From assembly GCF_003334315.1 (NCBI RefSeq), contig NZ_QOWR01000019.1: a stretch of 64,000 nt of DNA. One strand, written 5' to 3'. The stretch comes from Escherichia coli (lineage in GTDB: Bacteria > Pseudomonadota > Gammaproteobacteria > Enterobacterales > Enterobacteriaceae). Both the position numbers and the translations under genes were made by a program. Below the pieces are notes generated by a model that was not told where the DNA came from, ran no database searches, and saw nothing but the letters and a program-made list of their open reading frames with translations. This document shows positions 1 through 480 of this stretch, one piece after another (position 1 is the stretch's first letter; the number at the start of each line of letters is the position of its first letter).

Positions 1-438
1 AGGCCGCAGTCGGTAACCTCGCGCATACAGCCGGGCAGTGACGTCATCGTCTGCGCGGAAATGGACGAACAGTGGGGATACGTCGGGGCTAAATCGCGCC
101 AGCGCTGGCTGTTTTACGCGTATGACAGTCTCCGGAAGACGGTTGTTGCGCACGTATTCGGTGAACGCACTATGGCGACGCTGGGGCGTCTTATGAGCCT
201 GCTGTCACCCTTTGACGTGGTGATATGGATGACGGATGGCTGGCCGCTGTATGAATCCCGCCTGAAGGGAAAGCTGCACGTAATCAGCAAGCGATATACG
301 CAGCGAATTGAGCGGCATAACCTGAATCTGAGGCAGCACCTGGCACGGCTGGGACGGAAGTCGCTGTCGTTCTCAAAATCGGTGGAGCTGCATGACAAAG
401 TCATCGGGCATTATCTGAACATAAAACACTATCAATAA
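1..438 (+). CDS. insB: IS1 transposase InsB' reading frame, 5'-truncated by the window edge
   Basis: Open frame continuous from position 1 to the stop at 436-438; ORF track 61..438 translates to the recognisable InsB C-terminal sequence ([22 protein letters not shown]...HYLNIKHYQ). Confidence 0.8.
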
Positions 439-453
439 GTTGGAGTCATTACC
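1..453 (+). mobile_element. IS1 insertion sequence, 3' portion (about 450 bp of the ~768-bp element; left end lies outside the window)
   Basis: Sequence from position 1 matches the internal and right-terminal part of IS1 as I recall it; the element ends with the IS1 terminal inverted repeat ...AAGTTGGAGTCATTACC at 437-453. The insA stop (GGC CGC AGT CGG TAA) is at 2-16. IS1 identity is from memory, not a search. Confidence 0.85.
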
Positions 454-480
454 GAAGGCTCACTTTGCAGAGGGAAGCGT

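Follow-up and report, generated by a model that had tools for sequence, protein, structure and literature searches.

The window, i.e. the whole 64-kb stretch of DNA that was analysed, opens inside an IS1 insertion element and continues into the ybjC-nfsA-rimK-ybjN operon. The features at this locus are the following.

1..453, + strand: IS1A-like element, right-hand 453 bp (IS1 positions 316-768), assigned by identity to the IS1 of strain ANT
431..453, - strand: right terminal inverted repeat (IRR) of IS1, marking the element's outer end, exact 23-bp match
454..480, + strand: residual native ybjC leader, 27 bp, identical to MG1655 890886-890912
454..462, + strand: GAAGGCTCA, predicted right copy of a 9-bp target-site duplication, based on the collinearity from -27 and on comparator IS1 insertions
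469-477, + strand: Shine-Dalgarno sequence AGAGGGAAG of ybjC, within the residual leader
481..768, + strand: ybjC (DUF1418 membrane protein), first gene of the operon, intact (NF007883, 209.6 bits)
752..1474, + strand: nfsA (oxygen-insensitive NADPH nitroreductase), intact (NF008033, 437.6 bits)
1535..2437, + strand: rimK (ribosomal protein S6 glutamate ligase), intact (NF007764, 670 bits)
2525..3001, + strand: ybjN, final gene of the operon according to the K-12 annotation, intact (identity to K-12 b0853)

The first 453 bp of the window are identical at 452 of 453 positions to the last 453 bp of a complete IS1, the single difference being at position 129. The reference copy for this comparison, from strain ANT, is 768 bp long and has a 9-bp duplication on its flanks. 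The first 315 bp of the element, with the left inverted repeat, insA and the frameshift site, precede position 1 of the window, as does any left copy of a target duplication. The right inverted repeat, GGTAATGACTCCAACTTATTGAT, is matched exactly at 431-453 on the minus strand, which is the sole match in the 64-kb window, with 0 chance matches expected. Positions 1-435 contain, in frame 1 of the + strand, the stop-free C-terminal 145 codons of insB', followed by a stop codon at 436-438. Their translation matches the NCBIfam model NF033558 (IS1 family transposase) with 138 bits (cutoff 100) at profile positions 82-199 of 199, thus spanning the C-terminal 118 positions of the profile. An earlier reading made from the sequence alone (the sequence-only reading) had described these 453 bp as part of an IS1 with its right inverted repeat ending at 453 and with insB' in the same orientation as ybjC, and in each of these respects the description is borne out.

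Downstream of the element, ybjC, nfsA, rimK and ybjN are intact and collinear, and each of them is 100% identical to K-12 MG1655 at the nucleotide level. The ybjC open reading frame extends from 481 to 768, with its ATG at 481 as read earlier, and its 3' end is overlapped by the start of nfsA over 17 bp. NfsA shows 0 amino-acid differences from the K-12 protein. As the nfsA coding sequence is undisrupted, the locus is not a classical nfsA-inactivation allele; an allele with an intact nfsA may still behave as a partial inactivation allele.

Window position 454 corresponds to MG1655 890886, and from there the two sequences are collinear, 2,615 bp aligning with 0 mismatches. Alignment of the junction to the reference grxA-ybjC intergenic region, a check proposed in the sequence-only reading, thus shows that the native sequence resumes at 454. 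In MG1655 this intergenic region measures 159 bp and is unbroken. The insertion point lies between ...TTGCATTAATTGCTAAAAGCTATAACTGTTAAACACAATACAGTGAAAAGTTTTAGACT and GAAGGCTCACTTTGCAGAGGGAAGCGTATG of the reference, i.e. between -28 and -27 from the ybjC ATG, leaving 27 bp (454-480) between the IS1 end and the ATG. Relative to nfsA it lies 298 bp ahead of the ATG, within the promoter-leader region of ybjC. The possibility that the junction is an assembly artefact seems unlikely, as the transition from IRR to target is clean and occurs at a reference-collinear position.

The junction appears to be confined to this strain or its immediate kin. A search of 5,426 complete E. coli genomes gave no single-piece full-length match to the junction among the matches listed, and the eleven records with at least 80% coverage of the junction query all have IS1 at other positions. 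The exact junction had 0 matches in a one-genome-per-species contig collection and 0 matches in the JGI metagenome contigs. Together with the unbroken intergenic region of MG1655, these results uphold the earlier claim that K-12 has no IS1 here and that the insertion is strain-specific; the contrary case that was looked for, the same IS1 position in reference genomes, was not found among the matches listed for the 5,426 complete genomes. Over stretches of 20 kb and 25 kb, the window shows 100% identity to many E. coli strains of commensal, animal and clinical origin that have small genomes, strain cM2a being at or near the top of both lists of relatives, and the gene order of the relatives is K-12-like. 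A Shigella source was rejected on the basis of these matches and of the single IS1 end in the 64 kb. Since even those relatives that match the flanking 20-25 kb at 100% identity lack the junction, the insertion is specific to the strain or to a narrow sublineage, and recent. In four of the relatives (2018-11-3CC, HS30-1, ECZP248 and 162.2) an insertion of ~776 bp, the size of IS1, is observed within the region corresponding to 39001-64000 and is absent from the window; such IS1-sized insertions in the closest relatives indicate that IS1 activity is ongoing in the clade.

The whole window is ~99.5% identical to MG1655, with 284 mismatches and indels in a mosaic arrangement; a K-12 derivative as the source, suggested by the mismatch-free first 2.6 kb, was rejected for this reason. 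The identity is 100% from 454 to ~14500, 97.8-98.8% in ybjT-ltaE-poxB (16420-20617) and 98.7-100% in later blocks; this mosaic is a typical E. coli recombination patchwork. Several further features were observed along the window. An orphan CRISPR array is present at 35319-35520, between clpA (32831-35107) and tRNA-Ser(GGA) (35567-35654), consisting of three exact 28-bp repeats GTTCACTGCCGTACAGGCAGCTTAGAAA (Rfam CRISPR-DR4) and one degenerate repeat at ~35497, with spacers of 32-33 bp; it is about two repeat-spacer units longer than in MG1655, and no cas genes are adjacent to it. We take this array at clpA-infA to be the known type I-F 'CRISPR4' remnant. Compared to K-12, ycaN (58339-59247, - strand) contains a premature stop at codon 204 of 302, and ycaK (59347-59936, + strand) has a 1-bp deletion causing an early frameshift, with an alternative open reading frame at 59373-59936. 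These changes are probably lineage polymorphisms, since relatives are 100% identical over this stretch. Gathering-level Rfam matches were obtained for STnc130 (50413-50547, - strand, between serS and dmsA), naRNA4 (10320-10400, + strand, upstream of artJ/artM) and ES036 (9298-9340, + strand), small RNA families that are expected features of E. coli and unrelated to the insertion.

Expression of nfsA is under the control of the ybjC promoter, which is strongly and rapidly induced by nitrofurantoin (Mitosch et al., PMC6375286). According to the account of Paterson 2002 given in a review (PMC11936445), SoxS co-regulates ybjC and nfsA, whose promoter belongs to class I of the SoxS promoters. A marbox, gcattaattgctaaa, has been reported in the grxA<>ybjC region from MarA ChIP-seq (PMC5684230), and this published sequence maps to -84..-70 from the ybjC ATG in the reference. 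Core-promoter candidates, by comparison, are predicted hexamer pairs from a relaxed scan. One such pair, TTGCTA-18-CACAAT at -77..-48, overlaps the marbox; another, TAAACA-18-TAGACT at -57..-28, lies downstream of the marbox as required for class I. The predicted -10 of the latter, TAGACT, which is the best class I candidate, ends exactly at the insertion point.

In the window, the marbox and core promoter are no longer found directly upstream of ybjC, where 27 bp of native DNA remain before IS1, and promoter scans detected no -10-like hexamer in this residual leader (454-480). The published marbox and both predicted hexamer pairs are situated upstream of -28/-27, in line with the displacement of the native promoter claimed in the sequence-only reading. 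Because the marbox and all plausible predicted -35/-10 pairs lie upstream of the insertion, the operon is cut off from its promoter by IS1. The comparison with the reference shows that the marbox and the plausible predicted core hexamers are now positioned beyond IS1, ~777 bp further from ybjC. Further downstream the consensus scan gave a single site, TTCACG-16-GATAAT at 726-753; it was rejected as an internal nfsA promoter, since it overlaps the nfsA start codon and cannot drive nfsA.

To place the insertion among other natural IS1 insertions of the region, the complete genomes were searched with chimeric queries of 154 bp of an IS1 end and 247 bp of target, and matches were mapped relative to the ybjC ATG. 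All counts from these queries are lower bounds, ~385-388 IS1-rich records being represented by their best 40 pieces. The mapped insertions are as follows.

In grxA, same orientation as ybjC: -386 (NT1F25), -291 (EcPF5), -244 (P276M)
In grxA, opposite orientation: -275 (Z226-5, Z226-6), -244 (SW071610)
In the ybjC leader, same orientation: -5 (673)
In ybjC, same orientation: +28 (BS15R-A), +52 (PI24), +66 (CS18F, E06), +203 (TL012), +220 (ANT, DAM)
In ybjC, opposite orientation: +41 (GN03551, GN03139), +256 (2452), +262 (C1)
At the nfsA 5' end, opposite orientation: +276 (21EVA), +279 (MB20)

IS1 is thus located between the promoter and an intact nfsA at no fewer than nine other sites (-5, +28, +41, +52, +66, +203, +220, +256 and +262), in at least 12 of the 5,426 complete genomes and in both orientations. 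Among the insertions between the promoter and nfsA, that at -27 is unique in that both the ybjC open reading frame and the Shine-Dalgarno sequence are intact and in that it abuts the predicted -10. Complete genomes with IS1 within ~1 kb of the 3' half of nfsA number at least 18 for the same orientation and at least 44 for the opposite one. Control loci treated in the same way gave the following counts.

potH, same orientation: 0 genomes, 0 sites
ybjN-potF intergenic region (AT-rich), same orientation: 0 genomes, 0 sites
ybjN-potF intergenic region (AT-rich), opposite orientation: at least 3 genomes, 1 site
ycaC, same orientation: at least 8 genomes, ~3 sites

The number of independent IS1 events is higher in ybjC-nfsA than at the control loci, an enrichment by sites that is regarded as suggestive because the control background is non-zero and grxA is hit five times. 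Part of the recurrence may reflect target preference of IS1 instead of selection, as indicated by the five events in grxA and the eight or more genomes with IS1 in ycaC. The occurrence of both orientations fits selection for inactivation and not an orientation-specific activation. With respect to grxA itself, a gene of 258 bp adjoining the ybjC promoter, the five independent insertions are those of NT1F25, EcPF5, P276M, Z226-5 and SW071610; the -244 site, with the duplication CGCGTTCAT, has been hit in both orientations in two unrelated strains, and nfsA of SW071610 contains an internal stop. We know of no link between grxA and nitrofurans.

The comparators also bear on how the junction at 453/454 arose. 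Target duplications in the 16 mapped IS1 events measure 9 bp in 12, 8 bp in two and 7 bp in one, and are lacking in one (strain C1). By analogy with these mapped insertions, a simple insertion is assumed for the IS1 of the window. Such an insertion predicts that the IS1 left repeat GGTGATGCTGCCAACTTACTGAT is preceded by a flank ending in ...AAAAGTTTTAGACTGAAGGCTCA and, further out, by grxA; the left junction would accordingly read ...AGTTTTAGACTGAAGGCTCA and then the IS1 left inverted repeat GGTGATGCTGCC... It is improbable that 453/454 is instead the junction of an IS1-mediated rearrangement, i.e. a deletion next to the IRR or an inversion with IS1 copies at its ends, by which the promoter would have been deleted or moved and no target duplication formed. 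Such events do occur: IRR-adjacent deletions of 11-66 kb have been described in E. coli under nitrofurantoin selection (PMC10569738). Strain C1 (NZ_CP195942.1) provides an example at the locus itself, with an IS1 at ybjC +262 (1490-2257 of the examined stretch) that has no duplication and is bordered on its other side by an unrelated gene, a CHASE9-domain pseudogene, nfsA, with another IS1 end, being on the other strand at a distance of ~17 kb; here an IS1-mediated inversion or rearrangement has split ybjC from nfsA. Against a similar origin of the present junction, 15 of the 16 mapped IS1 insertions of the region are simple, with 7-9-bp duplications, and the window contains no sign of rearrangement.

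IS1 ends form hybrid promoters in some contexts, and it was considered whether the element might activate the operon. At the junction between IS1 and ybjC, a consensus scan detected no outward or hybrid promoter site of 9/12 or better. The best relaxed candidate scores 8/12 and lies inside insB, with a -35-like ATGACA at 392-397, a spacer that at 19 bp is not optimal, and GAACAT as a poor -10. An activating insertion, in which such a promoter would drive ybjC-nfsA constitutively, raise NfsA without SoxS and increase sensitivity to nitrofurans, could draw on the ATGACA element and on the known behaviour of IS1 ends elsewhere; given the weakness of the best junction candidate and the natural IS1 insertions upstream of nfsA in both orientations, it is highly improbable.

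Since no good promoter is found at the junction, transcription of ybjC-nfsA must pass through IS1. The explanation that we hold to be probable is that a strain-specific insertion of an IS1A-like element separates the operon from its promoter, lowers NfsA, blunts induction by SoxS and MarA and leads to low-level nitrofuran tolerance. A 768-bp IS1A-like element would have transposed into the grxA-ybjC intergenic region, with insA/insB' reading towards ybjC, and a 9-bp duplication would leave the native promoter intact, pointing into IS1. Transcription would then have to read through IS1 to reach nfsA, and could begin at the native promoter or at the weak IS1 promoter, which is repressed by InsA. 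Read-through from IS1 into the operon is a possibility, and read-through across the element would be subject to Rho-dependent polarity. IS1 insertions are classically polar in both orientations, via Rho acting on the largely untranslated insB' region. NfsA expression would fall and lose most of its inducibility by SoxS and MarA, and the dosage of RimK and YbjN would be changed as well. From the arrangement of the locus we infer that nfsA is expressed at a lower level and largely independently of SoxS; the insertion probably lowers NfsA and slightly raises nitrofuran tolerance. The outcome would be a first-step drop in nitrofuran susceptibility, with a change in MIC of roughly 2-fold. An insertion of a kan cassette in ybjC, upstream of nfsA, raised the nitrofurantoin MIC 2.25-fold, which its authors credit to reduced nfsA expression (Girgis et al. 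2009, PMC2680486). Loss of nfsA alone causes a limited change in MIC (≤32 mg/L) and alters clinical susceptibility to nitrofurantoin little or not at all (PMC10569738), so that the phenotype expected here is a low-level first step.

The size of this effect depends on how much transcription crosses the element. If read-through is sufficient, or if weak IS1-internal promoters contribute, NfsA and nitrofuran susceptibility could stay essentially unchanged and the insertion would be a neutral or near-neutral polymorphism. A 9-bp duplication would preserve the native -10 and start region on the left side of IS1, from where transcription would run in the direction of insA/insB', and read-through from this promoter could keep substantial expression; the + strand of 1-480 has no predicted site resembling an intrinsic terminator. 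A neutral origin would also agree with the activity of IS1 in the clade, where relatives carry IS1-sized insertions elsewhere in the 64-kb region, and with the hits at control loci (ycaC in at least 8 genomes, ybjN in at least 3). We nevertheless consider neutrality unlikely, since IS1 is classically strongly polar in both orientations, the ybjC::kan insertion measurably raises the nitrofurantoin MIC by polarity on nfsA (PMC2680486), and at least nine independent promoter-to-nfsA IS1 sites, in addition to the present one, stand against 0, 0, 1 and ~3 sites at the controls.

Beyond a lowering of NfsA, a simple insertion would put the ybjC promoter, activated by SoxS, MarA and Rob, in front of IS1. 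The marbox, the -35, the TAGACT -10 and the start region would in that arrangement adjoin the left end of IS1 and face insA/insAB'. Read-in transcription from upstream host DNA is known to raise IS1 insAB' transcription and transposition (PMC12428005). An IS1 copy that is inducible by drug or oxidative stress would favour IS1 insertions or deletions that knock out nfsB, the second resistance step (cf. PMC10569738). That the insertion both lowers NfsA and creates such an inducible IS1, as one member of a wider, under-recognised allele class, is rather improbable. If it is true, promoter-to-nfsA IS1 insertions would be under-recognised nitrofuran-tolerance alleles that are missed by coding-only screens.

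Nitrofurantoin and furazolidone are activated mainly by NfsA, and resistance usually begins with its loss. Prediction of resistance from genotype covers the coding sequences of nfsA, nfsB and ribE, the latter two of which lie outside the window. A large UK study states that promoters were not examined (PMC8767348). Screens restricted to the coding sequences of these three genes would therefore score alleles such as the present one as wild type. Together, the window and at least 12 complete genomes show that IS1 alleles of this promoter-proximal or polar type exist in nature, in isolates obtained from humans, pigs, poultry, calves and water. As the expected effect on the probable reading, a partial loss of NfsA, is small (~2-fold in MIC), the value of the insertion is that of a screening marker and of a candidate for expression tests, and not that of a new mechanism.

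The closest known relatives of the present insertion are IS1 interruptions of the nfsA coding sequence, which were reportedly described in nitrofuran-resistant E. coli by Whiteway et al. in 1998. IS1-interrupted nfsA is also found in the nitrofurantoin-resistant isolates IN01/IN02 and EC0880B (PMC8767348, PMC10569738); with these isolates, and with ybjC::kan as an upstream case (PMC2680486), the sequence-only reading is supported in calling IS insertion in or upstream of nfsA a documented route to resistance. The present allele shares with the IS1-in-nfsA alleles the element family, the operon and the expected direction of the effect, i.e. less NfsA and first-step tolerance. It differs in that nfsA is intact and identical to K-12 and that the insertion is located upstream, so that any effect would be transcriptional and probably partial.

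In the ybjC::kan mutant of Girgis et al. (2009) the insertion is likewise upstream of nfsA in one transcription unit. There, however, an engineered kan cassette resides inside ybjC, whereas here a natural IS1 precedes an intact ybjC. The natural IS1 alleles of ybjC (673, BS15R-A, GN03551/GN03139, PI24, CS18F/E06, TL012, ANT/DAM and 2452), all of which have 7-9-bp target duplications, share with the window the position of IS1 between the promoter and an intact nfsA. Unlike the present insertion, these alleles break the ybjC open reading frame, with the exception of strain 673, in which IS1 parts the ribosome-binding site from ybjC. In nitrofurantoin-resistant Klebsiella pneumoniae, according to a review, IS1 insertions located 37 bp upstream of ribC were read as promoter disruption, and under-expression was measured (PMC11936445). 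Both cases have an IS1 some tens of bp upstream of a gene of the nitrofuran-activation pathway, but species and gene differ, and lower expression is a measurement in Klebsiella and a prediction here. The insertion in the window is a new allele of a well-known type of event, in which IS1 disrupts the promoter of the nfsA transcription unit or exerts a polar effect within it.
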